61,850 nt of DNA from an uncultured Bacilli bacterium (GCA_947591575.1 CANQDI010000001.1:1-61850); one strand, 5' to 3'. Positions 34,270-61,453 are shown, numbered from the stretch's first letter. Notes: generated by a model not told the origin, from the sequence alone. Made by a program: numbers and translations.

Positions 34270-34325
34270 AAAAAGTGAAAAGATATTATTTCTTATATAT
34301 AATCTTTTTCACTTTTTTTTTAATT
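34270..34325 (+). terminator. intrinsic terminator after dnaN
   Basis: AAAAAGTGAAAAGA, a ~20-nt loop and TCTTTTTCACTTTTT are followed by a T-run. Confidence 0.65.
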
Positions 34326-34426
34326 TTTTTGTGGAAAACTTGAAAAATTCGTCTTTTTTCGACAGTAAAATATAGTAAGCTGATAGGCATGAAAGCACAG
34401 AAAATGCTTTCGAAGGGGGAATTTAT

Positions 34427-34888: not shown

Positions 34889-34998
34889 AAATTGTTTTTT
34901 TTCTTTTTTATGATGATTTTTGTGATATAATATAGTTACGTGTATAGGAGTACTGGAGGATGGTAATTTTGTTTCAATGAGGTTAAAATACAGCAAAA

Positions 34999-36108
34999 AT
35001 GATAATTAAGCATTTAAGTTTACTTCAATTTCGTAACTATAAAAGATTAGAACTAGATTTTCATCCTACTATGAATATTTTAATAGGGGACAATGCAGTT
35101 GGAAAAACAAATATTTTAGAGGCAATTGAAGTATTATCTCTTACAAAGAGTCATCGTGCAAGTGATTCTAGTCTTATCATGTATCATAAATCACTTGCTA
35201 AAATAAAAGGAACTGTTTTAGTTGATAACATTCTTCGAAAATTAGAAGTTGACTACGATACAGTCCAAAAAAAAACAAAAATTAATGGAACAGTCATTTC
35301 TAGAATAAGTGATTATATTTCATCATTAAATGTGATTGTTTTTACACCAGATGATATTGAAATTATTAAAGGATCTCCTAATATTCGGAGAAATTTATTA
35401 AACATGGAATTATCACAAATATCAAAAAACTATTTATCAACTTATAACCAGTACAACAAACTCCTTAAAACACGCAATGAATATTTAAAAATACTTTTGA
35501 CAAATCATCTTGCAGATAGAAATTATTTGAACGTGATTACAGAAAAACTTGTTGAAAAAGCTGTTTTTATTTATCGATATCGAAAAGAATATATTGATAA
35601 AGTAAATGAAAATATCAGTAGTATTTTTAAAGATATTCATAGTTTTTTTTCCTTGAAAATTCAATATGAACCGAATGTATCTTTTTCATCTTATGAAGAA
35701 AAAGTAATGAAAGAAGAATTACTTTCTATTTATCAAAAATATAGTCAAAAAGAACAGAATTATGGGATGACTTTGTATGGACCTCATAGAGATGATTTTA
35801 CTTTTTATTTAAATGAAAAAAATATTAAAATATATGGGTCTCAGGGTCAACAAAAAGCAGCTGTTTTAGCTTATAAACTTTCTTGTATTCCTATTTTTTT
35901 AGAAAAAACTGGAACAAGACCAGTTTTATTATTTGATGATATTTTTAGTGAATTAGATGGAAAAAAACAAAATAAATTATTAAAATATATAGGAAAAGAT
36001 ATTCAAAGTATTATTACAACAACAGATGTGAAAAATATTCGTAAAAGTTTATTAAAAGATGCTGCAATATTTACTGTCATATCTGGAAATGTGGAAAGGA
36101 AGATGTAA
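34999..36108 (+). CDS. recF: DNA replication and repair protein RecF
   Basis: The 369-aa ORF starts MIIKHLSLLQFRNYKRLEL, has the Walker A motif GDNAVGKTNILEA and an SMC-like signature (GSQGQQKAAVLAYKL). Confidence 0.95.
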   Translation: MIIKHLSLLQFRNYKRLELDFHPTMNILIGDNAVGKTNILEAIEVLSLTKSHRASDSSLIMYHKSLAKIKGTVLVDNILRKLEVDYDTVQKKTKINGTVISRISDYISSLNVIVFTPDDIEIIKGSPNIRRNLLNMELSQISKNYLSTYNQYNKLLKTRNEYLKILLTNHLADRNYLNVITEKLVEKAVFIYRYRKEYIDKVNENISSIFKDIHSFFSLKIQYEPNVSFSSYEEKVMKEELLSIYQKYSQKEQNYGMTLYGPHRDDFTFYLNEKNIKIYGSQGQQKAAVLAYKLSCIPIFLEKTGTRPVLLFDDIFSELDGKKQNKLLKYIGKDIQSIITTTDVKNIRKSLLKDAAIFTVISGNVERKM

Positions 36109-38034
36109 ATGGACGAAAAAATAGAGACAAAATATGATTCTTCTGCAATACAAGTATTAGAAGGATTAGAAGCGGTTAGAAAAAGACCTGGTATGTATAT
36201 TGGAACAACAAGTTCTAGGGGTCTTCATCATTTGGTATGGGAGATTGTAGATAATGCCATTGATGAAGCTTTAGCAGGTTTTTGTTCTCATATTGAAGTA
36301 ATAATAGGAAAGGATAATACCATTACAGTAAAAGATGATGGCCGTGGAATTCCAGTAGATGTTCACCCCAAAACAGGGCTTAGTACAGTTGAAACAGTAT
36401 ATACTGTATTACATGCAGGTGGTAAATTTGGTGGTGGCGGATATAAAGTATCAGGAGGACTTCATGGAGTTGGTGCCTCTGTTGTAAATGCTTTAAGTAT
36501 TTGGCTTGAAGTAAAAGTATATAAAAATGGACATGTTTATTATCAAAAATATGTAAATGGTGGGCATCCACAAGAACCTCTTCATGTGATTGATGATTGT
36601 GATGAAGATCGTACCGGAACAACTGTTACTTTTTTGCCAGATCCAGAAATTTTTACTGAGACGACAGTTTTTGATTATGAAATATTAAAAAATCGATTGA
36701 GAGAACTTGCTTTTTTAAATAGAGGTCTTCGAATAACTTTGTATGATGATAGAGAAGCAGATAAAAAAGATTCTTTTTATTATGAAGGTGGCATTACTGA
36801 ATATGTTGCTTTGTTAAATAAAAATAAAAATCCAATTCATCCTACGATTATTGATGTTTCTGGAGAAGAAAATGATATTATGGTTGAGGTTGCACTACAA
36901 TATAATGAAACGTATAATGCTAGTATTTATTCTTTTGTAAATAATATTACAACTCCTGAAGGTGGAACCCATGAAGATGGTGTTAAGATGGCCTTAACCA
37001 GAATTTTAAATAAATATGCTCAAAATAGTGGAATGTTAAAAAATAATGATAATTCCTTAATGGGAGAAGATGTAAAAGAAGGAATTACGATGATTGTTTC
37101 TGTTAAACATCCAAATCCACAATTTGAGGGACAAACCAAAACAAAACTTGGCAATAGTGAAGTTCGTGGAATTACTAATCATATTTTTGCCGATGCATTT
37201 GAACGTTTTTTGATGGAACATCCTGAAGAAGCAAGAGTTATTGTTGATAAAGCAATGACAGCTTCTCGTGCTAGAGTAGCAGCAAAAAAAGCAAGAGAAC
37301 TTACACGACGCAAGGGAGATCTTGATGTTACTAATTTTTATGGAAAATTATCAGATTGTAAAAGTAAAGATGCGGAAGTAAGTGAGATTTTCCTAGTCGA
37401 AGGGGATTCAGCTGGTGGTTCTGCGATTAAAGGAAGAGATAGTGTAACGCAAGCTATTTTGCCACTTCGTGGAAAAATTTTAAATGTAGAAAAAGCAAGA
37501 CTTGATAGAGCTCTTTCTAATGAAGAAATTCGAACGATTATTACTGCATTTGGAACAGGAATAGGAGAAGAATTTGATCTTTCTAAATTGAGATATAACA
37601 AAATTATTATTATGACCGATGCAGATGTAGATGGTTCTCATATTCGAGTTTTGTTACTTACTCTTTTTTATCGGTTTTTTAAACCGATTGTAGAAGCAGG
37701 TCATGTATATGCAGCTCAACCTCCTTTATTTGTTATTAAACATGGAAAAACTATTAAATATGTTTTAAATGAACAAGAGCGTGATGAATATTTACAATCT
37801 CTTCCTCAAAACACTAAATATGAAATTGCTCGTATGAAAGGTTTAGGAGAAATGGATGCAGAAGAATTGAATGAAACAACGATGGACATTCATAAACGTG
37901 TTTTAAGACAAATTACCGTAGAAGATGCTATTGCAGCAGATGAAGTTTTTTCTAAACTCATGGGTGAAGAAGTGGAACCAAGAAGAGAATTCATTGAGAC
38001 AAATGCTACATATGTAGAAAACTTAGATGTATAG
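36109..38034 (+). CDS. gyrB: DNA gyrase subunit B
   Basis: The 641-aa ORF has the GHKL ATPase motifs ([13 protein letters not shown] and [14 protein letters not shown]), the Toprim motifs EGDSAGG and [10 protein letters not shown], and DADVDGSHI. Confidence 0.98.
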
Positions 38035-38043
38035 GAGGACAAC

Positions 38044-40479
38044 ATGGATAGATTAGAAAAAAATAGTATTGTAAAAGAAGTAAAAGACTCTTTCCTAGAA
38101 TATTCAATGAGCGTTATTGTAGCACGCGCATTACCAGATTTACGGGATGGTTTAAAGCCAGTTCATCGTCGTATTTTATATTCTATGTATGAGTCAGGAT
38201 ATACTCCAGATAAACCTCATAAAAAAAGTGCAAAGACAGTTGGAGAAGTCATGGGAAATTACCATCCACATGGAGATTCTAGTATTTATGAAGCAATGGT
38301 TCGTATGGCACAAGATTTTTCATATCGCTATATGTTAATTGATGGTCATGGAAACTTTGGAAATATTGAAGGATATGGTGCTGCTGCAATGCGATATACA
38401 GAAGCACGTTTATCCAAGATTTCGTTAGAATTACTTAAAAATATTAATAAGAATACTGTTAATTTTATTCCAAATTTTGATGAAACAACGAAAGAACCTG
38501 AAGTATTACCATCTAGATTTCCTAATATTTTAGTAAATGGTACAACTGGAATTGCAGTAGGTATGGCAACGAATATTCCACCACATAATTTAGGAGAAGT
38601 TATTGATGGGTGTGTTGCTTATATCGATAATCCTGATATCGATGTAGATGGATTGATGAAATACATTAAGGGACCTGATTTTCCAACTGGAGCAACTATT
38701 TTAGGAAATAGTGGTATTCGAAAAGCCTATGAAACAGGGCGAGGAACGATTACAATTCGAAGCAAAGCTCAAATTGAAGAAAAAAATGGAAGACAATATA
38801 TTATTGTTGATGAAGTACCTTATGGTATTAATACTTTAGAACTTAAAAATAAAGTGGCAGAGCTTGTACATAATAAAGTTATAGATGGTATCGCAGATTA
38901 TCATTCTGATTTAAAAGATGGTATTAAAATTACGATTACATTGAAAAAAGATGCTAATGCACAGGTTGTGTTAAATCAACTTTATAAACATACTTCTTTT
39001 CAGACAACTTATGGTATTATTTTCTTAATGTTAGATCAAGGTGTCCCAAAAACCCTTGGATTAAAAGATATTATTGAAAAATATATTGAATTTCAAAAAG
39101 AAATCATTATTCGTAGAACTAATTTTGATCTTGAAAATGCAGAAAAAAGAGTTCATATTTTAGAAGGCTTGAAAATTGCACTCGATCATATTGATGCAGT
39201 TATTAAGCTAATTCGTGGATCTAAAACAGATGACGAAGCAAGAAATGGTCTTATGAATCAGTTTGGACTAACTGAGATTCAATCAAATGCTATTCTAGAA
39301 ATGAGACTACGTCGATTAACTGGTTTAGAACGCGAAAAAATCGAAAATGAATTAAATGATCTTTTAAAATTGATTGCTGAACTTAAAGATATACTAAGTA
39401 GTGATGCTAAAATTTTAAATGTTATTCGTACAGAATTATTAGAAATTAAAGGTAAGTATGCTGACGAGCGTAGGACAAATATTGATATGACAGCAATTGA
39501 ATATATTGAAGATGAGTCTCTTATTCCAGTAGAAGATATTATTATTACCTTAACAAATAAGGGATATATTAAACGTTTAAGAGCAGATACTTATCGTGCT
39601 CAAAATCGTGGTGGTGTTGGAATTAAAGGAATGACAACGAACGAAGAAGACTTCGTAGAACATATTGTATCCATGAAAACTCATGATTATCTCTTATTTT
39701 TCTCAAATAAAGGTAAAGTTTATAGATTGAAAGGGTATGAAATTCCAGAATTTACGCGTCAATCAAAAGGTTTACCTATAGTTAACTTATTATCACTGGA
39801 AAAAGATGAATATATCAATTCAATAGTAGAGTTAAATTCAAAGGAAGATATTTATAAATATTTAATGTTTGCAACGAAAAATGGACTTGTCAAACGAACT
39901 CCAATTGGTGAATTTGATAATATTCGTAAGAGTGGTAAAATTGCAATTATTATTAAAGAACAAGATGAATTAATAGTAGTAAGAAAAACAACAGGTGAAG
40001 ATGAAATCATTATCGGTGGCAGTAATGGACGGATGGTTCGTTTCTTGGAACAAGAAATCCGATCTATGGGAAGAGGAACTTCTGGCGTAAAAGGGATGGA
40101 TTTAGAAAATGCAAAAGTCGTTGGTGCAGAAATTATTCATAGCGATGAAGAAGTTTTGATTGTTACTGAAAACGGATATGGAAAGAAAACAAACATTGGA
40201 GAATATCGCCTAACACATCGTGGAAGTAAAGGCGTCAAAGCTTTAAATTTAACCGAAAAAAATGGTAATATGGTTAGTCTAAAACGTGTTGAATCTATTG
40301 AAAATAATGATTTAATGATTGTAACTGATAATGGTGTGATTATGAGAATGCCATTAACACAAATTTCTACATTGAAAAGGGCTACACAAGGAGTAAGATT
40401 AATTCATCTTAAAGATAATCAAAAAGTAGCAACGGTTGCTATTGTTGAAAAAGAAATAATTGAAAGTCAACAAGAATAA
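38044..40479 (+). CDS. gyrA: DNA gyrase subunit A
   Basis: The 811-aa ORF has a QRDR-like [28 protein letters not shown], the active-site motif [10 protein letters not shown] and C-terminal beta-pinwheel repeats. Confidence 0.98.
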
Positions 40480-40509
40480 AGTAAATTATCTTTCTTTTCT
40501 TGTTTGAAA

Positions 40510-47355: not shown

Positions 47356-47922
47356 ATGAAAATGGTTGTAGCATTAGGAAATCCAGGTGAAGAATACGAA
47401 AATACACGACATAATACAGGATTTTTCTTTTTAGAATCTTATTTAAGAGAAAAAGGTTTTACTGTTTGGAAAAAAAAGAACAGAGCTAGATATATTGAAA
47501 AATATGTAAATGGCGAAAAAGTTATTTTTTTAGAGCCTCTTTCTTTTATGAATTTATCTGGAGAAGTTGTTTCTGTTTTTAAAAAATATTATAGTATTCC
47601 AACAGAAGATATTTTAGTAATTTGTGATGATTTAGACTTAAATTTGGGAAAAATAAAATTAAAAGCGAAGGGAAGTTGTGGTGGTCATAATGGCCTTAGA
47701 AATATTGAACTTCATCTAAAAACGCAAAACTACAAACGACTTAAAATAGGAATTTCAAATGACAAAGATAAAAGTACAATTGATTATGTTTTAGGAAAAT
47801 TTACGAAAGAAGAACAAACTAAGTTAAATGACTTGGTTCCAAAAATTTCTCAGATTATTGATCGCTTTTTTGTGACAGATTTTTCTCTTTTAATGAGTCA
47901 ATATAGTGAAAAGAATAGGTGA
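47356..47922 (+). CDS. pth: peptidyl-tRNA hydrolase
   Basis: The 188-aa ORF has the motifs GLGNPG-like ALGNPGEEYENTRHNTGF and GGHNGLRNI. Confidence 0.95.
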   Translation: MKMVVALGNPGEEYENTRHNTGFFFLESYLREKGFTVWKKKNRARYIEKYVNGEKVIFLEPLSFMNLSGEVVSVFKKYYSIPTEDILVICDDLDLNLGKIKLKAKGSCGGHNGLRNIELHLKTQNYKRLKIGISNDKDKSTIDYVLGKFTKEEQTKLNDLVPKISQIIDRFFVTDFSLLMSQYSEKNR

Positions 47923-50900
47923 TGATAGTGAAATTTTTAAATAACTTATTTTCTTTTCCAGAAGAGTTTCCATCCTCTTTTGGAGGCCTTACGAAAGAAA
48001 CCTATAGTATTTTGTTAGCTTCTCTATGTCAAAAAGAAAAGAGAAGCATTTTAGTTGTTACAGCAAGTTTATATGAAGCCAATATTTTAGTTGATTCTCT
48101 TTCCACTTACCTTGAAGAAGTTTATTTATTTCCGATGGATGACTTTTTAACAAGTGAAGCAGTTGCAATGAGTCCCGATTTAAAGATACGAAGACTTGAA
48201 ACACTATCTCGCATCAATTGTAGTACTCCTAAAATTGTTGTTACAAACTTAATGGGATATCTACGCTATCTTCCTCTTCCAAATGTTTATCAAAAATGCG
48301 TACAAAACATAAAAAAAGGTGATGAAATTTCACCTAAAGAATTCATTCAAAATCTTTATCACTTAGGATATCAAAAAGAAACCATTGTCACTAACACTGG
48401 AGAAATGGCAGAAAGAGGTTTTATTGTTGACGTTTTTCCTCTTTTAGAAGATCATCCAGTTCGTTTTGAATTTTTTGGAGATATGATTGAATCCATTCGA
48501 TATTTTGATGAAAAAAACCAAAAATCTTTAACGGAAATTCATGAAGTTACTATTTATCCTTTTACAGAATTTTTAACTTTACAAGAACAAGAACTATTTC
48601 TTCAAAAATATTTACCAGAATATGGAAAAGTTGCATCAATTTATGATTATTTAAAAAATCCTATTTTAATTTATCAAGATGATACAAGAATTGAAACAAC
48701 TTATCGTTCCATACAAGAAGAAATTTTTACGTATCAGACGACAAAAGATATTGAATTTAAAGGGAAATATATGCATGAGTTGCCCTCTTTTTCCTCTCGA
48801 AATATTCTATTTTATTCAAGTGTTGATAATTATGAAAAAAATCAAAAATTTTATGATTTTCATATTCAATCTTTACCAAAATTTAATGAAGATATTGAAT
48901 CCATTCGTAATTTTATTCAAAAAAATTTACAGAAAGATAAATATATTATTGTTGCGTTAAAGGATTATCAATTACCATCTTTTGCAAAACAAATATCTAT
49001 TTCTTATCAAAAAACAACCTTTGATAAATTATTGAAAGGGTGTATCAATTTAGTGCCTTTTGAAATGCAAGAAGGATTTCTTTATAAAGATTATGTATTT
49101 TTGACAGCAAATGAATTATTTAATGTTCAAAAACCAAGAAAAACTTATAAAAATAAATATAAGTATGCTACTAAGATACATGACTTAAATAAATTAAATA
49201 AAGGAGATTATGTTGTTCATGAAGTACATGGAATTGGCATTTATCGAGGAATAAAAACGCTTTCTCAAATGGGTCTTGAAAAGGATTATCTTGAAGTGGA
49301 GTATTTAGGAAAAGATAAATTATATATTCCTGTGGAAAAAATAGAATTATTAAGTAAATATACAGGTAAAGAAGGTATTCGTCCTACAATTCATAAACTA
49401 GGAGGAACAGTTTGGACAAAGACAAAGGAAAGAATTCGCTCAAAGGTTCAGGATATGACAAAACAGCTTTTAGCACTTTATGCTAAAAGAGAAAGCCAAA
49501 AAGGTTATGCTTTTTCACCTGATACAGAATTACAAAAACATTTTGAACAAGCTTTTCCTTATAAACTTACAAGTGATCAAAGCAAAGCTTTATTGCAAAT
49601 TAAAGAAGATATGGAAAAGGAGTCTCCAATGGATCGTCTTCTTTGTGGAGATGTTGGTTTTGGAAAAACAGAAGTTGCCTTTTGTGCAGCATTTAAAGCA
49701 ATTAATGATAGTAAACAGGTTCTATTCTTGTGCCCTACGACGATTCTTTCAAATCAGCATTATCAAAATGCTAAAGAGCGTTTTCATGATTTTCCAGTAT
49801 CAATGGCTTTGTTAAACCGTTTTACGCCAATGAAAGAGGTCAAGAGAATTTTAAATGGATTAAAAGATGGTACGATTGATATGGTATTTGGAACACATCG
49901 TTTATTATCTGATGATATTCATCCCAAAGATTTAGGCTTATTAATTATTGATGAAGAACAACGTTTTGGTGTTAAACACAAAGAAAAAATCAAACAATAT
50001 AAAACAAATATAGATGTGTTAACATTAACAGCAACTCCTATTCCAAGAACTTTGCAAATGTCTATTGTGGGAATAAGAAGTCTTTCGTTAATTGAAACTG
50101 CACCTATGGATAGATATCCAATTCAGACATACGTATTAGAAGAAAATATGCAAGTAATCAAAGATGCTATTTATAAAGAATTATCTCGTTATGGACAAGT
50201 TTTTATTCTTTATAATCGAGTTGAAAGTATAGAAAGACAGTTATTGAAAATTCAAAATTTAGTGCCTGATGCTAAAATTACATTTGCTCATGGACAAATG
50301 TCTCGAGAAAAAATTGAAGATAGAATGTTCGCTTTTATGAATCATGAATATGATATTTTACTTTGTACGACGATCATTGAAACTGGCATTGATATTCCTA
50401 ATGTTAATACTTTAATTATTTTAAATGCAGATCAATTTGGATTAAGTCAGTTATATCAAATTCGTGGGCGAGTTGGAAGAAGTAATAAAATTGCTTATGC
50501 TTATTTGATGTATCAGTCTCAAAAAGTTTTGACGGAAACTGCAATGAAACGGTTAAATGTCATCAAAGAGTTTACGGAACTTGGAAGTGGTTTTTCCATT
50601 GCTACAAGAGATCTTTCGATTCGTGGCGCAGGAGATATTTTAGGGAGTGAACAAGCTGGATTTATAGATACGATAGGAATTGATTTATATCTAAAAATGC
50701 TTAATGAAGAAGTAGTTAGACAAAAAGGTCAACAAAAAGAAGAGTCTATTACAACAGAAAATGAAACAAAACCCCTTCTTTCTGTTTCCACACATATTAA
50801 AGATGAATATGTCAAAGAAGAAGAATTAAAAATTGAAATTCATCGTAAAATTAATGAAATCCAAGATAAGAAATCTTTTCAGTCAGTAAAAGAAGAATTA

Positions 50901-51224
50901 GAAGATCGTTTTGGAACACTACCAGAAGAAATGATTATATATATGCATGAAGAATGGTTTGAAAATCTTGCTAAAAAATTACCTGTTCATCGTGTAAGAC
51001 AAATGAAAAATATGATTGAAATGAACTTTACGAGTGAATTTGTTGCTATGATCGATACAGAAAAACTTTTTGTTGATGCTTTTCACATTACACCGATGTT
51101 TCGGTTTAAAAGCAGTCATGGAGATTTAACTATTTTGTTAGATACAATTCGTTTAGAAAAACATCCTGTTTTTTATCTTGTACAAATTTTAGAGTCATTA
51201 TATCTTCAAAAAACACAAAAGTAA
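47919..51224 (+). CDS. mfd: transcription-repair coupling factor
   Basis: The 1101-aa ORF has an RNAP-interacting domain (GDYVVHEVHGIG) and SF2 helicase motifs (GDVGFGKTEV, DEEQRFGV, TATPIPRT, QLYQIRGRVGRS). Confidence 0.97.
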   Translation: MMIVKFLNNLFSFPEEFPSSFGGLTKETYSILLASLCQKEKRSILVVTASLYEANILVDSLSTYLEEVYLFPMDDFLTSEAVAMSPDLKIRRLETLSRINCSTPKIVVTNLMGYLRYLPLPNVYQKCVQNIKKGDEISPKEFIQNLYHLGYQKETIVTNTGEMAERGFIVDVFPLLEDHPVRFEFFGDMIESIRYFDEKNQKSLTEIHEVTIYPFTEFLTLQEQELFLQKYLPEYGKVASIYDYLKNPILIYQDDTRIETTYRSIQEEIFTYQTTKDIEFKGKYMHELPSFSSRNILFYSSVDNYEKNQKFYDFHIQSLPKFNEDIESIRNFIQKNLQKDKYIIVALKDYQLPSFAKQISISYQKTTFDKLLKGCINLVPFEMQEGFLYKDYVFLTANELFNVQKPRKTYKNKYKYATKIHDLNKLNKGDYVVHEVHGIGIYRGIKTLSQMGLEKDYLEVEYLGKDKLYIPVEKIELLSKYTGKEGIRPTIHKLGGTVWTKTKERIRSKVQDMTKQLLALYAKRESQKGYAFSPDTELQKHFEQAFPYKLTSDQSKALLQIKEDMEKESPMDRLLCGDVGFGKTEVAFCAAFKAINDSKQVLFLCPTTILSNQHYQNAKERFHDFPVSMALLNRFTPMKEVKRILNGLKDGTIDMVFGTHRLLSDDIHPKDLGLLIIDEEQRFGVKHKEKIKQYKTNIDVLTLTATPIPRTLQMSIVGIRSLSLIETAPMDRYPIQTYVLEENMQVIKDAIYKELSRYGQVFILYNRVESIERQLLKIQNLVPDAKITFAHGQMSREKIEDRMFAFMNHEYDILLCTTIIETGIDIPNVNTLIILNADQFGLSQLYQIRGRVGRSNKIAYAYLMYQSQKVLTETAMKRLNVIKEFTELGSGFSIATRDLSIRGAGDILGSEQAGFIDTIGIDLYLKMLNEEVVRQKGQQKEESITTENETKPLLSVSTHIKDEYVKEEELKIEIHRKINEIQDKKSFQSVKEELEDRFGTLPEEMIIYMHEEWFENLAKKLPVHRVRQMKNMIEMNFTSEFVAMIDTEKLFVDAFHITPMFRFKSSHGDLTILLDTIRLEKHPVFYLVQILESLYLQKTQK

Positions 51225-51940: not shown

Positions 51941-52120
51941 TGCTCTCATTTTATGTTTTCAAGAAAAATATATGTAATTTTGACATTTATTTCTCTAAAT
52001 CATTTGGAAATAATTACCAAGGGAATTATTTGTTGAAACGATTATAATATATGTAGACAAAAAATTGTATAACCTAACTAAATTTTGAAAACAATAATTG
52101 TAGATGGAAAGGGTGAGTAT

Positions 52121-52651
52121 ATGAAAACAACTGGCGTTGTGCGAAAAATTGATGATTTGGGTAGGATTGTAATTCCTAAAGAAATTCGTCGAACTTTAAA
52201 AATTCGAGACGGTGAATCATTAGAAATCTTTGTGGATAAAGAAATGGTAACCTTAAAAAAATATTCTACAATGGAAGATTTACAAGAGATTGCAAAAAAA
52301 TTAACAGACGCAATTTCTAATATTACAACAAAAAATATATATGTATCTGATAGAGATTGTTTTATTGCCGGAAATGGAGAGATGAAAAAACGTTTTTTGG
52401 GTCAAGCTATTTCTCCCTATTTAGAAGAAATTATAAAAGATTGTGAAAAGCAGTTATCAAAAGAAATTAAAAAGATAGAATTCATTTCTGGTGTCGAAGG
52501 AGAATATGCCTATGCGATTTGTCCTATATTATCTCAAGGATCTGCGATAGGTCTTGTACTAATTGTTTCAAAAGATAAAGATATTACAGAAGAGGATATG
52601 ATGATTACAAATATAGTTGCACAATTTCTTGCAAAATGTGTTGAAGAATAA
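52121..52651 (+). CDS. spoVT: AbrB-family regulator SpoVT (stage V sporulation protein T)
   Basis: It has the SpoVT/AbrB swapped-hairpin N-terminus (MKTTGVVRKIDDLGRIVIPKEIRRTLKIRDGESLEIF) plus a GAF-like C-terminal domain of ~120 aa. It sits in the mfd-spoVT order as in Bacillus. The ATG follows AAGGGTGAG. Confidence 0.85.
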   Translation: MKTTGVVRKIDDLGRIVIPKEIRRTLKIRDGESLEIFVDKEMVTLKKYSTMEDLQEIAKKLTDAISNITTKNIYVSDRDCFIAGNGEMKKRFLGQAISPYLEEIIKDCEKQLSKEIKKIEFISGVEGEYAYAICPILSQGSAIGLVLIVSKDKDITEEDMMITNIVAQFLAKCVEE

Positions 52652-54488: not shown

Positions 54489-54557
54489 GTTGTGGTATTA
54501 TCGAAGGGTAGTGCAAAGAAGTTTGGCGGTACTTGCGGTGAAGAAAGGAAAAGAAAA

Positions 54558-54728
54558 ATGCCAAAGTTAATCAAAAAAATAGGAGTAGAAAGACTTGTTT
54601 ATATTAGTATTACCCTTTTTTTGATTCTATTAGTAATTGAAGAAAGAAATGTTTTAGATTTCGGTTATTTATGCTTATTTATTTTTTATAGGATTCGTCT
54701 GCATCTTTTAAGACGGCACCTGCACTAG
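54558..54728 (+). CDS. possible small membrane protein (56 aa)
   Basis: An ATG follows GAAAGGAAAAG and there are two hydrophobic stretches (LVYISITLFLILLVI and FGYLCLFIFY). I do not recognise any homology, so this could be non-coding. Confidence 0.3.
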   Translation: MPKLIKKIGVERLVYISITLFLILLVIEERNVLDFGYLCLFIFYRIRLHLLRRHLH

Positions 54729-55520: not shown

Positions 55521-55568
55521 ATTATTATGCAAATATCGAATATTTTAACAAAAAAAAGCAATGAAAAA

Positions 55569-55738
55569 TGTCAACTTAAAAAAAAGCTCTTGAGAAAGAA
55601 AAAAAGATATGTTATATTTTTAACATAAGGAGGATAGAAACATGAATAATAATTCATCAAAGCAAATCTTATTATCAGTGTTGGGAGTAGCTATTTTAGT
55701 AGTTGCAGTAGTTGGAGTATCATTTGCAGCATTTACAT
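55569..55738 (+). repeat. 170-nt direct repeat, copy A (promoter + RBS + signal-peptide coding region)
   Basis: It differs from 56311-56480 at only 3 positions. Similarity drops sharply at the predicted signal-peptide cleavage site. Confidence 0.95.
55590..55618 (+). promoter_or_regulatory. sigma-A promoter of TasA-like gene 1
   Basis: TTGAGA (55590-55595), a 17-nt spacer and an extended -10 TGTTATATT (hexamer at 55613-55618). Confidence 0.65.
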
Positions 55739-56274
55739 TTAGTGACACACAAGACAACAAGGAAAATACAATTACTACAGGTGCAATTACACTTACATAT
55801 CAAGAAAGTGAAAATGGTATATCTATTACGAATATGATGCCAACAAAAGATACAACAGGAAAAGCCTTAACGAATGATTCCACTGATGTAACAGGTGGTA
55901 GTACCAATGTGTTTGATTTTGCAATTAATGCAGACATTAAAGGAAAAACAACTATTAACTATACTGTTTCAGCAAAAAAACAAGATAGTACTCTAGATGA
56001 TAAATATGCCAAACTTTATTTAGAGACAATCAGTGAATTAGGTGCATCAACTGGTGTAGAAAAAATGGCTCCAAAAACTTACCAATTAGATGCTGATCCA
56101 AAGGTAGATAGTAATGGAAGACCAGCTGACGAAATGACTTTAACTACAGGAAGTTTCACAGCAAGTGCCAATCATTATTATCGTCTAAAAATGTGGGTTG
56201 ATGAATCATACGTGCCAGATGGTACTTCAAAGTCTTTTACGGTTAAAGTAAATGTTTATGCTAAAGCAGCATAA
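55642..56274 (+). CDS. TasA/camelysin-like secreted protein with SipW-dependent-type signal peptide (paralogue 1)
   Basis: The N-terminus reads MNNNSSKQILLSVLGVAILVVAVVGVSFA/AFTFSDTQDNKENTITTGAITL. This parallels B. subtilis TasA (...GGGTWA/AFNDIKSKDATFASGTLDL). The C-terminal motif is YYRLKMWV...FTVKVNV. The RBS is AGGAGG. Confidence 0.8.
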   Translation: MNNNSSKQILLSVLGVAILVVAVVGVSFAAFTFSDTQDNKENTITTGAITLTYQESENGISITNMMPTKDTTGKALTNDSTDVTGGSTNVFDFAINADIKGKTTINYTVSAKKQDSTLDDKYAKLYLETISELGASTGVEKMAPKTYQLDADPKVDSNGRPADEMTLTTGSFTASANHYYRLKMWVDESYVPDGTSKSFTVKVNVYAKAA

Positions 56275-56280
56275 TAAAAA

Positions 56281-56309
56281 AAGAAATCTTCCTTTGATTT
56301 CTTTTTTTT
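56281..56309 (+). terminator. intrinsic terminator after paralogue 1
   Basis: The sequence reads AAGAAATC, loop TTCCTTT, GATTTCTT, then TTTTTT. Confidence 0.8.
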
Positions 56310-56310
56310 G

Positions 56311-56480
56311 TGTCAACTTAAAAAAAAGCTCTTGAGAAAGAAAAAAAGATATGTTATATTTTTAACATAAGGAGGATAGAAACATGAATAATAATTCATC
56401 AAAACAAATCTTATTATCAGTGTTGGGAGTAGCTATCTTAGTGGTTGCAGTAGTTGGAGTATCATTTGCAGCATTTACAT
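56311..56480 (+). repeat. 170-nt direct repeat, copy B
   Basis: It pairs with 55569-55738 at a 742-bp offset. Confidence 0.95.
56332..56360 (+). promoter_or_regulatory. sigma-A promoter of TasA-like gene 2
   Basis: It is identical to the gene 1 promoter: TTGAGA, a 17-nt spacer and TGTTATATT. Confidence 0.65.
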
Positions 56481-56998
56481 GGAGTGCTGGTGATCAAAGT
56501 ACTAAATCAAATACAGTTAGTACAGGTACTATCACTATGACTTATCAAGAAGATACAAATGCTATTTCTATTCAAAACGCAATGCCTATGTCAGAGTCAG
56601 AAGGAATGAATCAAAGTGGAACAAATCAAGTTTTTGATTTTGGAATTCATGCAAGCATTAGCGGAAAAACAACTATTAATTATGCTGTTTCTGCAAAAGC
56701 AAAAGATGGTAATACATTAGATTCCCAATACGTTGATTTGTATGTTGAGGAAATTAATGAAATAGGTGGAACTAAATCTGGTGTAGCAATGGCAGCAACA
56801 CCATTTGCAACAACGGGAGCAGATACTACAACTGGAAAACCAGCAAATGAAATGACTCTTGTTTCAGGTAACTTTACAGCAACTGGTGATAAGTATTATC
56901 GCTTAAAGATGTGGGTTAACGAAAGCTATACAGTAGCTGATGAAGCAAAAACCTTTACGGTTACCCTTAATGCTTATGCTAAAGCGGCTGCTCAATAA
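56384..56998 (+). CDS. TasA/camelysin-like secreted protein with SipW-dependent-type signal peptide (paralogue 2)
   Basis: The signal peptide is identical at the protein level to paralogue 1. The mature start is AFTWSAGDQSTKSNTVSTGTITM. Shared blocks include NAMPMSE, VFDFGI, GKTTINYAVSAK, YYRLKMWV and FTVTLNAYAKAA. Confidence 0.8.
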   Translation: MNNNSSKQILLSVLGVAILVVAVVGVSFAAFTWSAGDQSTKSNTVSTGTITMTYQEDTNAISIQNAMPMSESEGMNQSGTNQVFDFGIHASISGKTTINYAVSAKAKDGNTLDSQYVDLYVEEINEIGGTKSGVAMAATPFATTGADTTTGKPANEMTLVSGNFTATGDKYYRLKMWVNESYTVADEAKTFTVTLNAYAKAAAQ

Positions 56999-57014
56999 GA
57001 TAAAGTATATTTAG

Positions 57015-57040
57015 AAAAGTAGATCATATCTACTTTTTCT
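57015..57040 (+). terminator. intrinsic terminator after paralogue 2
   Basis: The sequence reads AAAAGTAGAT, loop CAT, ATCTACTTTT, then TCTTT. Confidence 0.65.
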
Positions 57041-57068
57041 TTGCATTTTTTTCTCTTTATGCTATAAT
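57040..57068 (+). promoter_or_regulatory. sigma-A promoter of TasA-like gene 3
   Basis: TTTGCA (57040-57045), a 17-nt spacer and TGCTATAAT (TATAAT at 57063-57068). Confidence 0.65.
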
Positions 57069-57091
57069 TTTTTATAGTAGGAGGAGCAGAT

Positions 57092-57709
57092 ATGGATCAT
57101 AATGTTGAAGAAAATGAAAATAGAAAGGGTTCTTTATTTATTAGTATTTTAGCACTTCTCATTTTATTTGTTGCAATCTTTGGAGTATCTTTTGCAACCA
57201 TTACATTTACAAATAATGACAATTCATCTAATACAATTCGAACAGGAGAATTAAGAATGTATTATACAGAAGATACTAATGGTATTTCTATTGAAAATGC
57301 AATGCCTATGTCAGATGATGTTGGAATGAAAATGAATGCAGAAAATCAATATTTTGATTTTACCGTTGGAACAACAATTAAAGGGAAAGCAACAATTTCT
57401 TATGAAATTTCAGCAGAAAAAGATGTCAACTCTACTTTAAAGAATGAAAATGTTAAACTTTATTTAGAAAAGAAACGAGGAGCTATTTATGAACAGGAAA
57501 TGGCACCAACAGTCTTTACACCATTAAAAAAGCAAACTGATTGGGGAACAGAAAAAGGAACCATGTTGTTAGCTACAGGAACATCCAAACAAACAGAAGA
57601 GATTCAATATCGTTTAAGAATGTGGGTAAAACAAGATACAGTGATCACAGGTACTAGTGAAAATTTCACGGTTCGCGTAAATGTAAAAGGTGGAGTTCTT
57701 CCAGAATAG
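57092..57709 (+). CDS. TasA/camelysin-like secreted protein with SipW-dependent-type signal peptide (paralogue 3, divergent)
   Basis: The anchor LFISILALLILFVAIFGVSFA is followed by TITFTNNDNSSNTIRTGELRM. Shared blocks include NAMPMSDD, YFDFTV, GKATISYEISAE, YRLRMWV and FTVRVNV. Confidence 0.78.
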   Translation: MDHNVEENENRKGSLFISILALLILFVAIFGVSFATITFTNNDNSSNTIRTGELRMYYTEDTNGISIENAMPMSDDVGMKMNAENQYFDFTVGTTIKGKATISYEISAEKDVNSTLKNENVKLYLEKKRGAIYEQEMAPTVFTPLKKQTDWGTEKGTMLLATGTSKQTEEIQYRLRMWVKQDTVITGTSENFTVRVNVKGGVLPE

Positions 57710-57735
57710 CTATGTAAAACATGGCTTTTTCTTTG
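57708..57735 (+). terminator. probable terminator after paralogue 3
   Basis: AGCTATG, loop TAAAA, CATGGCT (with one G-U pair), then TTTTTCTTT. Confidence 0.5.
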
Positions 57736-57803
57736 ATATTTATTTTATTTTATCTTATTTTGTGTTATGATAATAATAGTTAAGAATAAGATGGGTGATA
57801 AAG

Positions 57804-58481
57804 ATGAGAGAAGAAAGTCATTCTCGTAAATCTACATTTTTTTATATTAAAAAAATATTGCATTTTATTACCACCGTTATCATGTATGTTATATTACTCA
57901 TCATGATTTTAGTGGCTATTCTTTTTGCCCTTTATTTTTTAGATCAAAAGAAAAACTTAGATAGTGGTAAAAATTTACCGCCTCTTTTTAATGCGTATGT
58001 TATTATTAGTCCTAGTATGGTGCCTACTATTAATGTAGAAGACGCTGTCGTTACAAAAAGAGTTAAAGAAAGCGAATTAAAAAAGGGAGATATTATTACA
58101 TTTAATTCTCCCGATTATCGGTACTCTGGAATTACCGTAACACATCGTATTGTAGGAATTGAAAAAACAAGTGATGGAAAAACACTCTACACTACCAAAG
58201 GAGATAATAATAATACCCCAGATAGTACAAGAATTACATATGATAATATCTATGGAAAAGCGATTTTGCGAATCCCAATGATTGGTTATTTACAGTACTT
58301 TTTAACACAAGCATATGGCTGGATTATTGCTGTTGTTATTCCTTGTCTTGGCATTATTATTTATGATATCATTAAACTAATTAAGACAATCAAAAGAAGT
58401 ATTGTTCCACAAAAAAAGAAGAGAAAAACTTATAAAGAAAAACCAAATCAAATGAAAGATAAAAGAAGGAGATTTAAGTAA
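57804..58481 (+). CDS. sipW: signal peptidase I, SipW (ER/archaeal Ser-His) type
   Basis: SPSMVPT (catalytic Ser), GDIITF, VTHRIV (catalytic His), TKGDNN and a C-terminal TM align with B. subtilis SipW (SGSMEPEF, GDVITF, VTHRIV, TKGDNN). It has a basic C-terminal tail. The ORF-track GTG is at 57795. Confidence 0.88.
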   Translation: MREESHSRKSTFFYIKKILHFITTVIMYVILLIMILVAILFALYFLDQKKNLDSGKNLPPLFNAYVIISPSMVPTINVEDAVVTKRVKESELKKGDIITFNSPDYRYSGITVTHRIVGIEKTSDGKTLYTTKGDNNNTPDSTRITYDNIYGKAILRIPMIGYLQYFLTQAYGWIIAVVIPCLGIIIYDIIKLIKTIKRSIVPQKKKRKTYKEKPNQMKDKRRRFK

Positions 58482-58483
58482 AA

Positions 58484-59020
58484 ATGAAAAAAAGAATTGC
58501 ACTGTTTTTTGCCGGAATTGTTTTGTTTGTATTCATCTTTATTACCTCGATTGCATGGAGTAGAATCTTTTTTAATGAAGAAGAAGTAGGAGATGTAACT
58601 ATTTTGAATATTGAATTTTCTGATGAACATCATTCAATCGATACAACGCAAGTGGCTCCTTTAGAAGAACCTATTGAAACATTAGAGCCCTATCAGTTTC
58701 GGTTAACGAATACAAGTTCTCATAATAGTCATTATCAATTACTTCTTGAAGAAGATCCTATTTCCAATAAAATTGGGTATCGTCAAGAAGATTTGTTGAC
58801 GAGAGAACAATTAAATTATGAACTTTCTTTAAATGGAAGTGTTATTAAAAAAGCTAAATTATCTACTATCAAAAATAATGTATTAGATGATCGGGTTATT
58901 CAGGGAAATAAAGAAAATAGTTATACTTTAAAAGTATGGGTTCATGATCAGGTAAAAGCAGGGGAATGGGAAAATAAGTATTATCATTATAAAGTAACTG
59001 TAAAAGTCATAGGAGAGTGA
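58484..59020 (+). CDS. membrane-anchored/secreted protein, distant fourth paralogue of the TasA-like proteins (TapA-like accessory candidate)
   Basis: An N-terminal TM ends in ...TSIAWSRIFFNEEE. The C-terminus YTLKVWVHDQVKAGEWENKYYHYKVTVKVIGE mirrors YYRLKMWVDESY...FTVKVNV of the paralogues. It lies 2 nt downstream of sipW. Confidence 0.7.
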   Translation: MKKRIALFFAGIVLFVFIFITSIAWSRIFFNEEEVGDVTILNIEFSDEHHSIDTTQVAPLEEPIETLEPYQFRLTNTSSHNSHYQLLLEEDPISNKIGYRQEDLLTREQLNYELSLNGSVIKKAKLSTIKNNVLDDRVIQGNKENSYTLKVWVHDQVKAGEWENKYYHYKVTVKVIGE

Positions 59021-59024
59021 TAAA

Positions 59025-59720
59025 ATGAAATCTTTCTTTGTAGAATATGCAAATATTGTTGCGACGACCATCCTTGGTTTGCTTTTTGGATTATCGTTTT
59101 TCTTGTTATATGTTAATTTTTATCATTATAAAGAAATTCAAACTACATATACTCCAAATACTGAAAATGGTACAGATTATGAAAATATACTTGCTCAAGT
59201 AAATGAGATAAGATCTGATGCTAATTCCTATTATCAAGCTACATACCGTGGACAAGAAAGTATATATGACATGTCTGGGTTACAAACAAAATTCAACTCT
59301 TGTATGGATAACTTTGAAAGCGAAGAATTAAAAAAATTACTAGATAAAGAAACTTTTGATATTCGTGATGTTTCTGATTTAATTCATTATTATCAAAATC
59401 GTATTTTAAATGATTGTCTTGTAGTGCAATTGTATAATATTGCCAATGAAGAAAATCCTAGTATTCAAATAGAACGATTAAAAGTATTAGCTCCATTTAT
59501 TAAAAACGAAATAGATTTATTTATTTCAACAGGTGTAGGATATGTAAAATCAAACATTCGAAATAATGATAGCTATTACTTTAGTAATCAAAGTGCTAAA
59601 AACACTATCTTTGAATTAACAAAAAATAGTTATTTAGAAATTATAAATCGTTATAAACAATCTTTAACATTTATTAAAACCTTGTCAGGTTGGTATAGAA
59701 CTGTTGCTCAAGGAGGATAA
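59025..59720 (+). CDS. hypothetical single-pass membrane protein (231 aa)
   Basis: It has one N-terminal TM (IVATTILGLLFGLSFFLLYV) followed by a ~190-aa soluble domain. It is tightly coupled to the flanking genes (4-nt and 1-nt gaps). I do not recognise the family. Confidence 0.65.
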   Translation: MKSFFVEYANIVATTILGLLFGLSFFLLYVNFYHYKEIQTTYTPNTENGTDYENILAQVNEIRSDANSYYQATYRGQESIYDMSGLQTKFNSCMDNFESEELKKLLDKETFDIRDVSDLIHYYQNRILNDCLVVQLYNIANEENPSIQIERLKVLAPFIKNEIDLFISTGVGYVKSNIRNNDSYYFSNQSAKNTIFELTKNSYLEIINRYKQSLTFIKTLSGWYRTVAQGG

Positions 59721-59721
59721 A

Positions 59722-60153
59722 ATGAAAAAAATATTTAATGTTATTTTCTATTATTTACAACTTATTTTATTTGTTGGTGCTTTTTGTTTAACTTTTTTCA
59801 TCATGTTACAGATGAATCGTCGTCTTGAAAAAAGTTTTTTTACAACAATTGATGTCTTTGTTCCTTTTATCATTTTATTTATTCTTTTAATCATCAATAT
59901 TCTTGCTAATCAAAAAACTGTAAAAAAGAATCTTTTTTATAATATTACCTCTTTTCTTATTTTTGGAACAATTTCAATCGTTGCATTAAGGGCAATATTT
60001 GATCATTATTTAATTATGGGAACACTTAATAGTTATCAAATTGATTTTAATTATTTTGCTAATTTTATTCCATTTTTGAAGATTATGATATATGGTCTTT
60101 CTCTTGCTAATTTTCTTTTTATGTTTCATCTTAAGGAAAAGAAGAAGCAGTAA
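59722..60153 (+). CDS. hypothetical polytopic membrane protein (143 aa, ~4 TM)
   Basis: I prefer the ATG at 59722, which follows GGAGGA, over the ORF-track start at 59704. It has four hydrophobic segments and is the last gene of the sipW operon. Confidence 0.65.
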   Translation: MKKIFNVIFYYLQLILFVGAFCLTFFIMLQMNRRLEKSFFTTIDVFVPFIILFILLIINILANQKTVKKNLFYNITSFLIFGTISIVALRAIFDHYLIMGTLNSYQIDFNYFANFIPFLKIMIYGLSLANFLFMFHLKEKKKQ

Positions 60154-60177
60154 GCACAGTAGTACTTTTTTCTTTGG

Positions 60178-61011: not shown

Positions 61012-61138
61012 GTATTTTAAATGCTTTTTTTTATCGTAGAAAAAGAAAAGATGTTTTTTTTAGAAAATGCTGTTTTAAATTCATTTTGTTTTATTCTAAA
61101 ATAGTTTGTTCTTTCATAAACTGTATTGGGTGAAGAGA

Positions 61139-61453
61139 ATGCAATTTAAAATAAAAGATATTGTAACAAGAAAATCCTATCAAAATGATATTTTATTTGA
61201 AATTGTGGATATTGATGATGATATAGCCTATTTAAAAGGGGTAGATGTTCGATTATGTGCAGATAGTCCTTTAGAAGATCTTGAAAAAGTAGGGATTTCT
61301 CGTGATGAAAAAAATGTAGATCAAGAATTTTATCAAAAACTAGATGGTTTTATTCAACTAGATAGAAATGAATATTTTTATTTACCTGGCAAAATTCTTC
61401 ATATTGACGCTGACATTAAATTAAATAACAACTCGCAAACTCTTATAAAATAA
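61139..61453 (+). pseudogene. yabG: yabG (sporulation-specific protease) N-terminal remnant, truncated after codon ~92
   Basis: MQFKIKDIVTRKSYQNDILFEIV...EYFYLPGKILHIDAD parallels my recollection of B. subtilis YabG (MQFQIGDMVARKSYQMDVLFRII...HYFHMPGKVLHLDGD). It sits in the conserved ksgA-yabG position. After HIDAD (61414) it reads IKLNNNSQTLIK-stop, whereas full-length YabG is about 290 aa. Confidence 0.6.

Follow-up and report, generated by a model that had tools for sequence, protein, structure and literature searches.

Results

A seven-gene block between tatD and rsmA is conserved across related gut Bacilli

Seven genes lying between tatD and rsmA in a 61,850-nt stretch of DNA from an uncultured Bacilli bacterium (GCA_947591575.1, CANQDI010000001.1:1-61850; hereafter the window) raise the question of whether they encode an extracellular fibre system of the TasA type, as a preliminary description made from the sequence alone had proposed. 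All seven ORFs are present where that description had placed them, and all are on the + strand (Table 1). The first three encode the expected paralogous proteins of about 205 aa (210, 204 and 205 aa), with parA 60% identical to parB and 41% identical to parC. A tight four-gene operon encoding a signal peptidase, p178, p231 and p149 lies 3′ of them; the peptidase measures 228 aa from a GTG start and 225 aa from the ATG chosen by the gene caller.

Table 1 Features of the locus, in window coordinates.
Feature	Coordinates	Strand	Description
parA promoter	55590..55618	+	TTGAGA, 17-nt spacer, TG-extended TATATT
parA	55642-56274	+	Candidate major-subunit paralogue, 210 aa; signal peptide with S-F-A/A-F site
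parA intrinsic terminator	56276..56309	+	AT-rich hairpin and T8 run; read directly from the sequence
parB promoter	56332..56360	+	Identical to the parA promoter
parB	56384-56998	+	Candidate major-subunit paralogue, 204 aa; modelled with AlphaFold2
parB terminator	57015..57042	+	Hairpin AAAAGTAGAT-CAT-ATCTACTTTT and T-run; read directly from the sequence
parC promoter	57040..57068	+	TTTGCA, 17-nt spacer, TG-extended TATAAT
parC	57092-57709	+	Candidate major-subunit paralogue, more diverged, 205 aa; cleavage region S-F-A/T-I
Terminator-like element 3′ of parC	57708..57736	+	Hairpin and T-run
Signal peptidase I	57795-58481	+	ER/archaeal (SipW) type; two TM helices, basic C-terminal tail
p178	58484-59020	+	Candidate minor paralogue, diverged; N-terminal TM or signal segment
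p231	59025-59720	+	One N-terminal TM helix, extracytoplasmic all-alpha bundle
p149	59704-60153	+	Small 4-TM membrane protein; 143 aa from the ATG at 59722

The gene order tatD-[1-7 paralogues]-peptidase-p178-p231-p149-rsmA is kept in all 49 related loci that are complete, which derive from different species-level gut MAGs. Because of this synteny the block is not accessory, and its initial portrayal as an insertion into a housekeeping string has to be abandoned: the locus belongs to the core of the whole lineage, is inherited vertically and occupies a constant chromosomal position in these uncultured gut Bacilli. Mapping across relatives, which the preliminary description had proposed as a check, found the neighbouring genes conserved together with the peptidase throughout this set. 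The block had also been thought to stand in place of yabE and rnmV. The window indeed has no yabE, but relatives keep a YabE-like gene beside the block, between tatD and the paralogues (7308-7895 in related locus L011); since this gene lies 5′ of the paralogues, the block occupies the yabE-to-rsmA interval, and yabE itself has also been lost from the window.

The locus is set among core housekeeping genes near oriC, and its neighbours include spoVT-like and yabG-like genes, the yabG here being a 115-aa remnant. The spoVT-metG-tatD...rsmA-yabG string represents conserved housekeeping synteny and is not a sporulation operon. The lineage carries spoIIGA and sigE.

Paralogue genes carry individual transcription signals

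The three paralogue genes had been described as separately promoted and terminated, which the transcription signals bear out. Every gene is preceded by a −35 element (TTGAGA or TTTGCA), a 17-nt spacer, a TG-extended −10 element and a strong AGGAGG ribosome-binding site, and is followed by an AT-rich hairpin with a T-run as terminator; a G+C-biased terminator scan missed the AT-rich hairpin of parA. This one-gene-per-transcript layout recurs in related loci, where the gene adjoining the peptidase is usually of the parC type. Some 70 nt of upstream sequence are identical between parA and parB, as are the first 31 residues of their products; a recent tandem duplication would explain this.

These promoters bear on a possible role of the paralogues in a spore-associated structure, as subunits of a coat, crust or appendage. 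The spoVT-like and yabG-like neighbours and the spoIIGA and sigE genes of the lineage would suit such a role, as would the label ‘spore coat-associated protein N’ that several databases attach to TasA-family proteins, TasA having originally been described as the spore coat-associated protein CotN. However, the paralogue promoters of both the window and its relatives resemble vegetative sigma-A promoters of the extended −10 kind with a near-consensus −35, and are unlike the sigma-E, -K, -F and -G types, as these promoter classes are known from B. subtilis; moreover, the surrounding gene string reflects housekeeping synteny, with yabG reduced to a remnant. A spore structure is therefore the least probable reading weighed here.

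The N-termini resemble TasA, within a family that current profiles do not recognize

Residues 11-70 of the paralogues, which span the signal peptide and the mature N-terminal strand, are their most conserved part, while residues 121-170 and 181-190 are variable; in parA a beta-sandwich domain is predicted besides the conserved strand. F28, A29, A30 and F31 show little or no variation across the family, and the resulting S-F-A/A-F site is in register with the T-W-A/A-F of TasA, with aromatics at P2 and P2′. In TasA, these aromatics render the protein refractory to E. coli LepB, and the dedicated peptidase SipW processes it (PMC10269814).

Profile comparisons uphold only part of the earlier claim of TasA-like N-termini. 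The cleavage site and the strand are supported by hhalign against a 35-sequence TasA-family alignment, which gave an in-register match limited to 60 N-terminal columns (Prob 29%, E 5.8e-4). The SipW-cognate signal peptide model TIGR04088, by contrast, aligned in register with the parB N-terminus over positions 2-34 of its 34 positions but scored only 9.7 bits (E 0.94), below its cutoff of 19 (TasA as positive control, 38 bits), and had no match to the full-length paralogues. When an HMM of TasA residues 1-70 was run on 1288 same-genome ORFs, the top 50 consisted of family members only, and 209 of 241 paralogues fell within the top 250; the best score was 17.3 bits and that of parA 16.1 bits, and a full-length TasA HMM scored the paralogues lower than this N-terminal model. 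The sequence likeness to the TasA N-terminus thus appears to exceed chance, yet it is weak.

Membership of the Peptidase_M73/TasA family, the other profile check proposed, was not borne out. PF12389 had no match at E<=1 in the four window paralogues or in 43 family members, while every TasA homologue retrieved as a control carries it. Searches of the paralogues against Pfam, NCBIfam (including TIGR04089 and TIGR04090) and PDB sequences likewise returned no significant match, so the paralogues do not fall within the TasA family. Type IV pilins were considered as well and rejected: the leader ends in ...S-K-Q ahead of the hydrophobic stretch, Gly at −1 and Glu at +5 are both missing, matches of family proteins to Pilin_N and PilA4 stayed at noise level, and the locus encodes neither a prepilin peptidase nor an ATPase or platform protein.

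Structure prediction gives the paralogues a beta-sandwich of the jelly-roll type, to which no PDB entry is close. In the AlphaFold2 model of parB (pLDDT 77 overall), the sandwich begins at about residue 50 and reaches pLDDT 85-96, whereas the conserved strand at residues 43-56 is of low confidence in the monomer. This pattern, expected for a strand that pairs in trans, is compatible with such pairing but non-diagnostic. Foldseek matches to the model are jelly-roll domains, among them CBM16/32, Eph ligand-binding domain, IBDV VP2 and TNF-like folds (E 6e-4 to 1e-2), with low TM-scores of 0.2-0.4 among the 50 best matches. The only filament subunit in these top 50 is the AbpA bundling pilin (7ueg_A; rank 25, E 4.5e-3, TM ~0.28), and the TasA structures 5OF1 and 8AUR are absent from them. 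The predicted sandwich type would suit the anticipated TasA-like fold; proximity to TasA itself is not supported.

A SipW-class peptidase is encoded beside its presumed substrates

The peptidase had been called SipW-type, and the assignment to this class is sound: it matches TIGR02228 with 108.6 bits (cutoff 51.85) and contains the motifs SPSMVPT, VTHRIV and TKGDNN on which the assignment had been based. Among 58 orthologues, S72-P-S74-M, H117, G136-D137-x-N139 and D143 are conserved at >=95%, and the TM helices of the window enzyme lie at residues 28-46 and 177-195. The Bacillus SipW equivalog NF046067, however, scores 87.5 bits, below its cutoff of 190; judged by these profiles, the enzyme shares the class of SipW but is not a SipW orthologue.

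The peptidase adjoins its presumed substrates in each of the 49 complete related loci. It might nonetheless be the general housekeeping signal peptidase of a reduced-genome lineage, with abundant secreted neighbours as ordinary substrates and no dedicated system. The core housekeeping surroundings near oriC would agree with this, and no P-type (LepB/SipS) enzyme was found in ~1.05 Mb, which represents a small and repeated part of each genome. Against it stand the strict gene order in 49/49 loci, the translational coupling in all of them to p178 and two family-specific membrane proteins, and the invariant TasA-like aromatic P2/P2′ signature of the substrates. A purely housekeeping role is thus very unlikely, and service as the sole signal peptidase could in any case coexist with a dedicated system.

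The operon also encodes a diverged paralogue and two membrane proteins

The product of the fourth paralogous gene, p178, had been noted as a shorter relative. Its pairwise identity to the major paralogues is only 16%, but hhalign identifies it as a full-length homologue of the major subunits (Prob 98.1%, E 7.7e-14); comparison with a TasA profile gave no significant match. Most p178 orthologues have no clear small-x-small cleavage site. The last two genes were correctly described as encoding membrane proteins with no recognisable family: p231, which carries the invariant cysteines Cys93 and Cys131, could be linked to no known family or fold, no family or fold match was found for p149 either, and no relatives of the two are detectable among known assembly factors.

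Paralogue family members vary in copy number and are fused to adhesin repeats

The paralogue family comprises 4873 cluster representatives. Loci contain between one and seven copies, and in MAG Lapin-012 bin84 at least 10 orphan copies are scattered among housekeeping genes. More than a third of the 150 best-scoring cluster representatives (54) exceed 300 aa and have the module at their very N-terminal end, and adhesin-type repeats (C-terminal Big_2 or Listeria-Bacteroides) occur in 5 of the 10 longest representatives scanned. The full sequences of three long members (P0215, P0181 and P0139) contain no C-terminal LPXTG, TM segment or other anchor. Classification of the window proteins as LPXTG surface proteins was rejected, as their C-termini contain neither LPXTG nor a TM segment; no sortase-like sequence was found in ~1 Mb searched, which covers part of the genomes only.

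These data could also be explained by a sortase-independent surface coat that forms no fibre, in which the N-terminal module acts as membrane anchor and stalk and presents large adhesins as well as variable proteins in monomeric form. The signal-anchor would remain uncleaved, or the peptidase would shed the protein in a regulated way, and arrays of paralogues would be a source of antigenic or functional variation within the gut. With its length of ~20-23 residues and its near-invariance, the hydrophobic segment would equally suit an uncleaved membrane anchor, and the variable segments lie on an otherwise conserved scaffold. The range in copy number, the dispersed orphans of Lapin-012 bin84, the many members with adhesin repeats and the missing C-terminal anchors of the three long members fit as well. 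The orders RFN20 and ML615J-28 have no srtA/B (PMC10868615), which is relevant only if the lineage falls within either. What speaks against a surface coat is the invariant and good −3/−1 site (S-x-A) with a dedicated peptidase gene adjoining; a passive stalk cannot account for a mature strand that is highly conserved and matches the register of the TasA donor strand, and p178 already resembles an anchored family member. We regard this explanation as rather unlikely.

Discussion

The explanation that we favour, with moderate confidence, is that the locus encodes lineage-specific, vertically inherited SipW-dependent surface polymers of a new TasA-superfamily-like clade, a family unrecognised by current profiles. 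The system probably represents a new branch among TasA-like fibre systems and not a member of the TasA family.

Such a system would work like the donor-strand fibres of TasA, Tafi and Abp. The three monocistronic, strongly promoted genes would supply major subunits for export by Sec, and we infer that the adjacent ER/archaeal-type peptidase cuts these after S-F-A. Cleavage would free the conserved strand AFTYS...NTITTGTITMxY, which could enter the predicted jelly-roll sandwich of the next subunit and so build a non-covalent fibre or sheath. The diverged p178, whose hydrophobic N-terminal segment mostly has no good cleavage site, may act near the membrane as anchor or nucleator in the way of TapA, AbpB or TafF. 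p231 and p149 would be membrane partners, forming either an anchoring or assembly platform or accessory subunits of the peptidase. Dispersed members that combine the same N-terminal module with Big_2 or Listeria-Bacteroides repeats might be shown on the polymer as adhesins.

Like the tapA-sipW-tasA operon of B. subtilis, the locus encodes an ER/archaeal-type peptidase beside its presumed substrates, together with a second, diverged secreted component. It further shares with TasA the mature N-terminal strand N-T-x-x-x-G-T-[IL]-x-[LM], followed by x-N-x-x-P and in register with the donor strand, and a globular jelly-roll-type beta-sandwich, which for the window proteins is predicted. The globular domain, on the other hand, is not alignable to that of TasA, fusions to adhesin repeats are common in the family, and the lineage has one to seven monocistronic major-subunit genes where the TasA system has one. 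Here the major subunits have a paralogue as minor component, whereas TapA is no paralogue of TasA, and two extra membrane proteins share the transcript of the peptidase.

The Tafi pili of haloarchaea (PMC11821415, PMC12337348) belong to the TasA superfamily and assemble by strand donation, which we infer for the window subunits. In locus logic they match the present system: duplicated pilins (TafA/TafE), a signal peptidase I (TafD), TafG, tip (TafC) and membrane-anchor (TafF) proteins, and an accessory membrane protein thought to help the peptidase. They differ in their archaeal origin and in being exported mostly by Tat; as accessory protein they have DUF5305, which was not detected in the window locus, and the latter contains no transcription regulator. 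Archaeal bundling pili (AbpA/AbpB and AbpX; PDB 7UEG; PMC9245690) are built of ~200-aa jelly-roll subunits, as predicted for the window paralogues, and AbpX has an adjacent TIGR02228 peptidase, with accessory anchor proteins in bacterial AbpX loci (bioRxiv 10.64898/2026.01.04.697558). The AbpX-associated peptidase, however, has ten TM helices as opposed to two, no sequence relationship between these pilins and the window subunits is detectable, and the structural match to AbpA is weak.

Within the Bacillota, sipW-bsaABC of C. perfringens is comparable as an operon that links SipW to matrix proteins and encodes several subunit paralogues, although the window proteins have no match to the model of the BsaA family (TIGR04090); BsaA polymers are reported with intermolecular isopeptide bonds (PMC11580942). 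TasA-superfamily loci have been described that combine major-pilin paralogues and a TIGR02228 peptidase with a minor or tip subunit and membrane anchors (bioRxiv 10.64898/2026.01.04.697558; PMC12337348).

Gene layout and genomic setting

All seven open reading frames (ORFs) proposed for the fibre locus are present on the + strand when the window is read for ORFs. Three encode the paralogous candidate major subunits parA, parB and parC, with parB and parC sharing 60% and 41% identity with parA in pairwise alignment. The upstream ~70 nt and the first 31 residues are identical in parA and parB, and the pair is therefore a recent tandem duplicate. Every paralogue is preceded by its own near-consensus -35 box, 17-nt spacer, TG-extended -10 box and AGGAGG ribosome-binding site, and behind it come an AT-rich hairpin and a T-run, which agrees with the separate promotion and termination reported in the preliminary description. 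This one-gene-per-transcript layout recurs in related loci. The sigma-A-type promoters speak against a spore-associated structure, a reading that we regard as most improbable. Four tightly packed genes follow 3′ of the paralogues (gaps of 2-4 nt, or overlap), encoding the peptidase, the shorter relative p178, and the candidate membrane proteins p231 and p149. The promoters of parA and parB contain A7/A8 tracts, but phase variation through these was rejected: tract lengths are unchanged in the near-identical contig L001, and the spacers of relatives differ.

The dnaA region and the coding-strand switch just upstream of dnaA place the locus on the leading strand, ~25 kb away from the putative oriC; dnaN, gyrB, gyrA, mfd and rpoB also lie in the window. 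The AbrB-domain protein encoded upstream of metG resembles SpoVT from end to end, with 161 bits on TIGR02851 (below the equivalog cutoff, 235.9), in contrast to the short AbrB that B. subtilis has at the corresponding position. A small ORF between metG and tatD, also called in L001, encodes a basic N-terminus and one hydrophobic segment and has no family match. Of the 283 positions in the YabG model, the yabG ORF aligns to 1-73; it has no continuation in any frame and looks like a truncated remnant. A ParA/Soj-like ORF carries an odd Walker A motif (KGRVDKITTT).

Features of the window and of two related loci, with positions and product sizes
Feature	Sequence	Position	Strand	Product
Replication-origin neighbourhood	window	31200-40500, plus 1584-5228 and 47919-51224
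dnaA	window	31622-32989
SpoVT-like AbrB gene	window	52085-52651
ORF between metG and tatD	window	54492-54728		78 aa
Seven-ORF candidate fibre locus	window	55.6-60.2 kb	+
parA (paralogue)	window		+	210 aa
parB (paralogue)	window		+	204 aa
parC (paralogue)	window		+	205 aa
SipW-type peptidase	window	57795-58481	+	228 aa
yabG ORF	window	61106-61453		115 aa
ParA/Soj-like ORF	window	starts near 61685
ORF between tatD and paralogue array	L011	7308-7895		195 aa
Multidomain family ORF	L003	6123-7943		606 aa

Paralogue N-termini resemble TasA

The paralogues had been likened to TasA, the B. subtilis biofilm-fibre protein processed by SipW. Pfam and NCBIfam scans of all seven window proteins, and of 43 and 38 family members, matched the peptidase alone, and neither single sequences nor profiles found anything among PDB sequences; parA, parB and parC thus have no match in these three resources, singly or as a 43-sequence profile. 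On TIGR04088, the parB N-terminus reached 9.7 bits against a cutoff of 19, though aligned in register; as a positive control, B. subtilis TasA (mature sequence verified against 8AUR_A) scored 38 bits. By these scores, the paralogues formally fall outside both the TasA/Peptidase_M73 family and the TIGR04088 signal class.

Profile comparison nevertheless indicates that the likeness of their N-termini to TasA is real and specific, if weak. Aligned by hhalign, the family gives a P of 0.0018 with TasA alone and an E of 5.8e-4 with a 35-member TasA alignment. In the latter, the signal peptides pair, S-F-A/A-F with T-W-A/A-F, followed by N-T-I-x-T-G-T-I-x-M with x-T-F-A-x-G-T-L-D-L and N-A-x-P with N-L-K-P. 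An HMM of TasA residues 1-70 was used to rank the 1288 ORFs that make up the window and 79 related loci: the top 50 were family members only and 209 of the 241 members ranked within the top 250; in the window, parA scored 16.1 bits versus 2.5 bits for the best unrelated ORF. The full-length TasA HMM scores lower on the family than this N-terminal HMM; the globular domains therefore share no detectable sequence relationship. The proposed TasA-like cleavage site and strand are thus upheld, while membership of the TasA family is not.

The cleavage signature is of mechanistic relevance: because of its aromatic residues at P2 and P2′, TasA is poorly cleaved by E. coli LepB, and its processing falls to the dedicated SipW (PMC10269814). 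Across the paralogue family, F(P2), A(P1), A(P1′) and F(P2′) vary little or not at all. Leader sequence and locus content rule out a type IV pilin identity.

Predicted fold of the major subunits

The AlphaFold2 model of parB (43-sequence alignment; pLDDT 77 overall) contains an N-terminal helix at residues 7-23 and, from about residue 50, a nine-strand beta-sandwich at pLDDT 85-96; confidence is low at residues 22-48, and residues 51-60 reach only 59. The most conserved part of the paralogue family, residues 11-70, contains this low-confidence stretch, and residues 121-170 and 181-190 are variable. Foldseek returned only distant jelly-roll sandwiches (among them CBM16/32, the Eph ligand-binding domain and IBDV VP2), with the archaeal bundling pilin AbpA (7ueg_A) at rank 25 (E 4.5e-3, TM about 0.28) and no TasA structure among the 50 best matches. 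Matches to viral structures were generic jelly-roll tail fibres and capsids, with no phage link. The modelled fold class is compatible with the TasA superfamily, which is no proof of membership.

The peptidase and its neighbours

The peptidase scores 108.6 bits on TIGR02228 (archaeal/ER-type signal peptidase I; cutoff 51.85) and 87.5 bits on the Bacillus SipW equivalog (cutoff 190), and it matches the bacterial P-type model below cutoff only. The S-P-S-M, T-H-R and G-D-x-N boxes and one further Asp are ≥95% conserved across 58 orthologues, and one TM helix flanks the catalytic domain on each side. The scores and the conserved boxes bear out the SipW-type Ser-His peptidase originally proposed, an enzyme that shares the class of SipW without being its orthologue. 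In the window and 79 loci, which cover a small part of each genome, tblastn found no match to approximate query sequences of SipS (B. subtilis) and SrtA (S. aureus). That the peptidase is merely a housekeeping enzyme appears very unlikely.

The fourth, shorter relative, p178, is identified by hhalign as a true, diverged full-length paralogue of the major subunits (Prob 98.1%, E 7.7e-14); its hhalign comparison with the TasA family was not significant. In most p178 orthologues, T-S-x-L-W-Y ends the hydrophobic segment without a clean small-x-small site, and p178 may therefore stay membrane-anchored. The p231 model comprises one TM helix and a seven-helix bundle (pLDDT 80), with two invariant cysteines; it has no sequence or fold neighbour, the best Foldseek matches in the PDB being generic helical bundles (best E-value 0.13). 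Four TM segments are present in p149. As first described, both are membrane proteins of no recognisable family, matching nothing in Pfam or NCBIfam.

Distribution, synteny and copy number

Pattern matching and tblastn, applied to one genome for each GTDB species, recovered 78 loci. Their sources are without exception uncultured gut Bacilli, among them Candidatus Onthousia, Clostridium sp. CAG:451 and MAGs that carry the label Tenericutes or Bacilli. The 49 loci holding both tatD and the peptidase share the order spoVT-metG-tatD-[paralogues]-peptidase-p178-p231-p149-rsmA, keeping the block together across relatives, and its G+C content equals that of the flanks. By position and composition, the block is thus an ancient core feature that the lineage has inherited vertically, in place of the accessory locus initially envisaged. 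A mobile-element or horizontal origin was rejected on the same two grounds, and the neighbours examined show no signatures of integrases or repeats.

A YabE-like gene sits between tatD and the array in most relatives and has been lost from the window. In locus L011, the product at this position has an N-terminal TM segment and a 3D/DPBB-like C-terminus, YabE-type as judged by eye, with no NCBIfam match. The gap from tatD to the paralogues is ~700 bp in most related loci versus 120 nt in the window and its closest relative, L002, where this gene is absent.

Across the 49 loci, the array holds one (4 loci), two (7), three (11), four (18), five (6), six (2) or seven (1) paralogues. Copy number also changes between very close strains, as L001 (an ENA ERZ27249059 contig, 98-100% identical to the window) carries parB and parC only, with parA absent; tatD in L001 is split into two ORFs (108 and 88 aa). 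A variable surface coat, membrane-anchored and non-polymeric, is a rather unlikely alternative to the fibre. The rabbit-gut MAG Lapin-012__bin84 holds, on contigs of their own, at least 10 further copies of the family (its loci are L003, L004, L006, L007, L012, L029, L035, L037, L044, L073 and L079). These sit among housekeeping genes (spoIIGA-sigE, PPDK, a MurJ-like flippase), and some are multidomain.

Family size and adhesin fusions

With clusters at 50% identity, an exhaustive profile search retrieved 4873 representatives at E≤1e-3, a number that falls to 2091 at E≤1e-10. No member returned by sequence search bore a Pfam domain or source name, and eight family clusters looked up were all unnamed. 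Among the 150 best representatives, 54 exceed 300 aa, the longest having 1743 aa, and the module lies at their very N-terminus; five of the ten longest carry Big_2 and/or Listeria-Bacteroides repeats. Three long sequences inspected in full have no C-terminal anchor.

Proposed mechanism and comparison with known systems

Taken together, the sequence evidence partly supports the original interpretation: the system probably works like TasA/SipW, with subunits that no current model places in the TasA family. In the best-supported mechanism, subunits would be exported by Sec, the SipW-type enzyme would cut after S-F-A, the conserved N-terminal strand would insert as a donor strand into the sandwich of the next subunit, and p178 with p231 and p149 would anchor or nucleate the fibre. 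The polymer would also display those family members that are adhesin fusions. We infer the cleavage, the polymerisation and the roles of the accessory proteins.

Sortases are reported absent in RFN20 and related orders (genome survey, PMC10868615). If the lineage belongs to one of these, the ~200-aa N-terminal module (SipW-type signal, donor strand, jelly roll) becomes a candidate general surface display system of a sortase-less gut Bacilli branch. In each genome, dozens of proteins, large adhesins with Big_2 and Listeria-Bacteroides repeats among them, would be processed by one dedicated peptidase and join a cell-anchored polymer by strand exchange, nucleated by p178 and held by p231/p149, with the tandem, individually promoted major-subunit genes as antigenically variable blocks. 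We consider this extension unlikely. If the proposed fibre system is confirmed, a large bacterial clade that Pfam, NCBIfam and the PDB do not cover at present would be added to the donor-strand fibres of the TasA superfamily, and p231 and p149 would be two new membrane partners of a SipW-type peptidase. It would also offer a concrete candidate for adhesin display by uncultured, reduced-genome gut Bacilli, the sources of the family, with their barely characterised cell surface. A seed alignment for a new protein-family model would come with it, ready for use in annotating gut metagenomes, where 'hypothetical proteins' of this family would number in the thousands.

The locus resembles TasA-superfamily fibre loci in its anatomy, combining duplicated major subunits and a TIGR02228 peptidase with a diverged minor subunit and accessory proteins of the membrane. 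TasA/TapA studies (PMC9674648, PMC10151520) reportedly provide a further instance. This anatomy is described for TasA-superfamily fibre systems in bioRxiv 10.64898/2026.01.04.697558, and the Tafi system has a comparable locus anatomy (PMC12337348).
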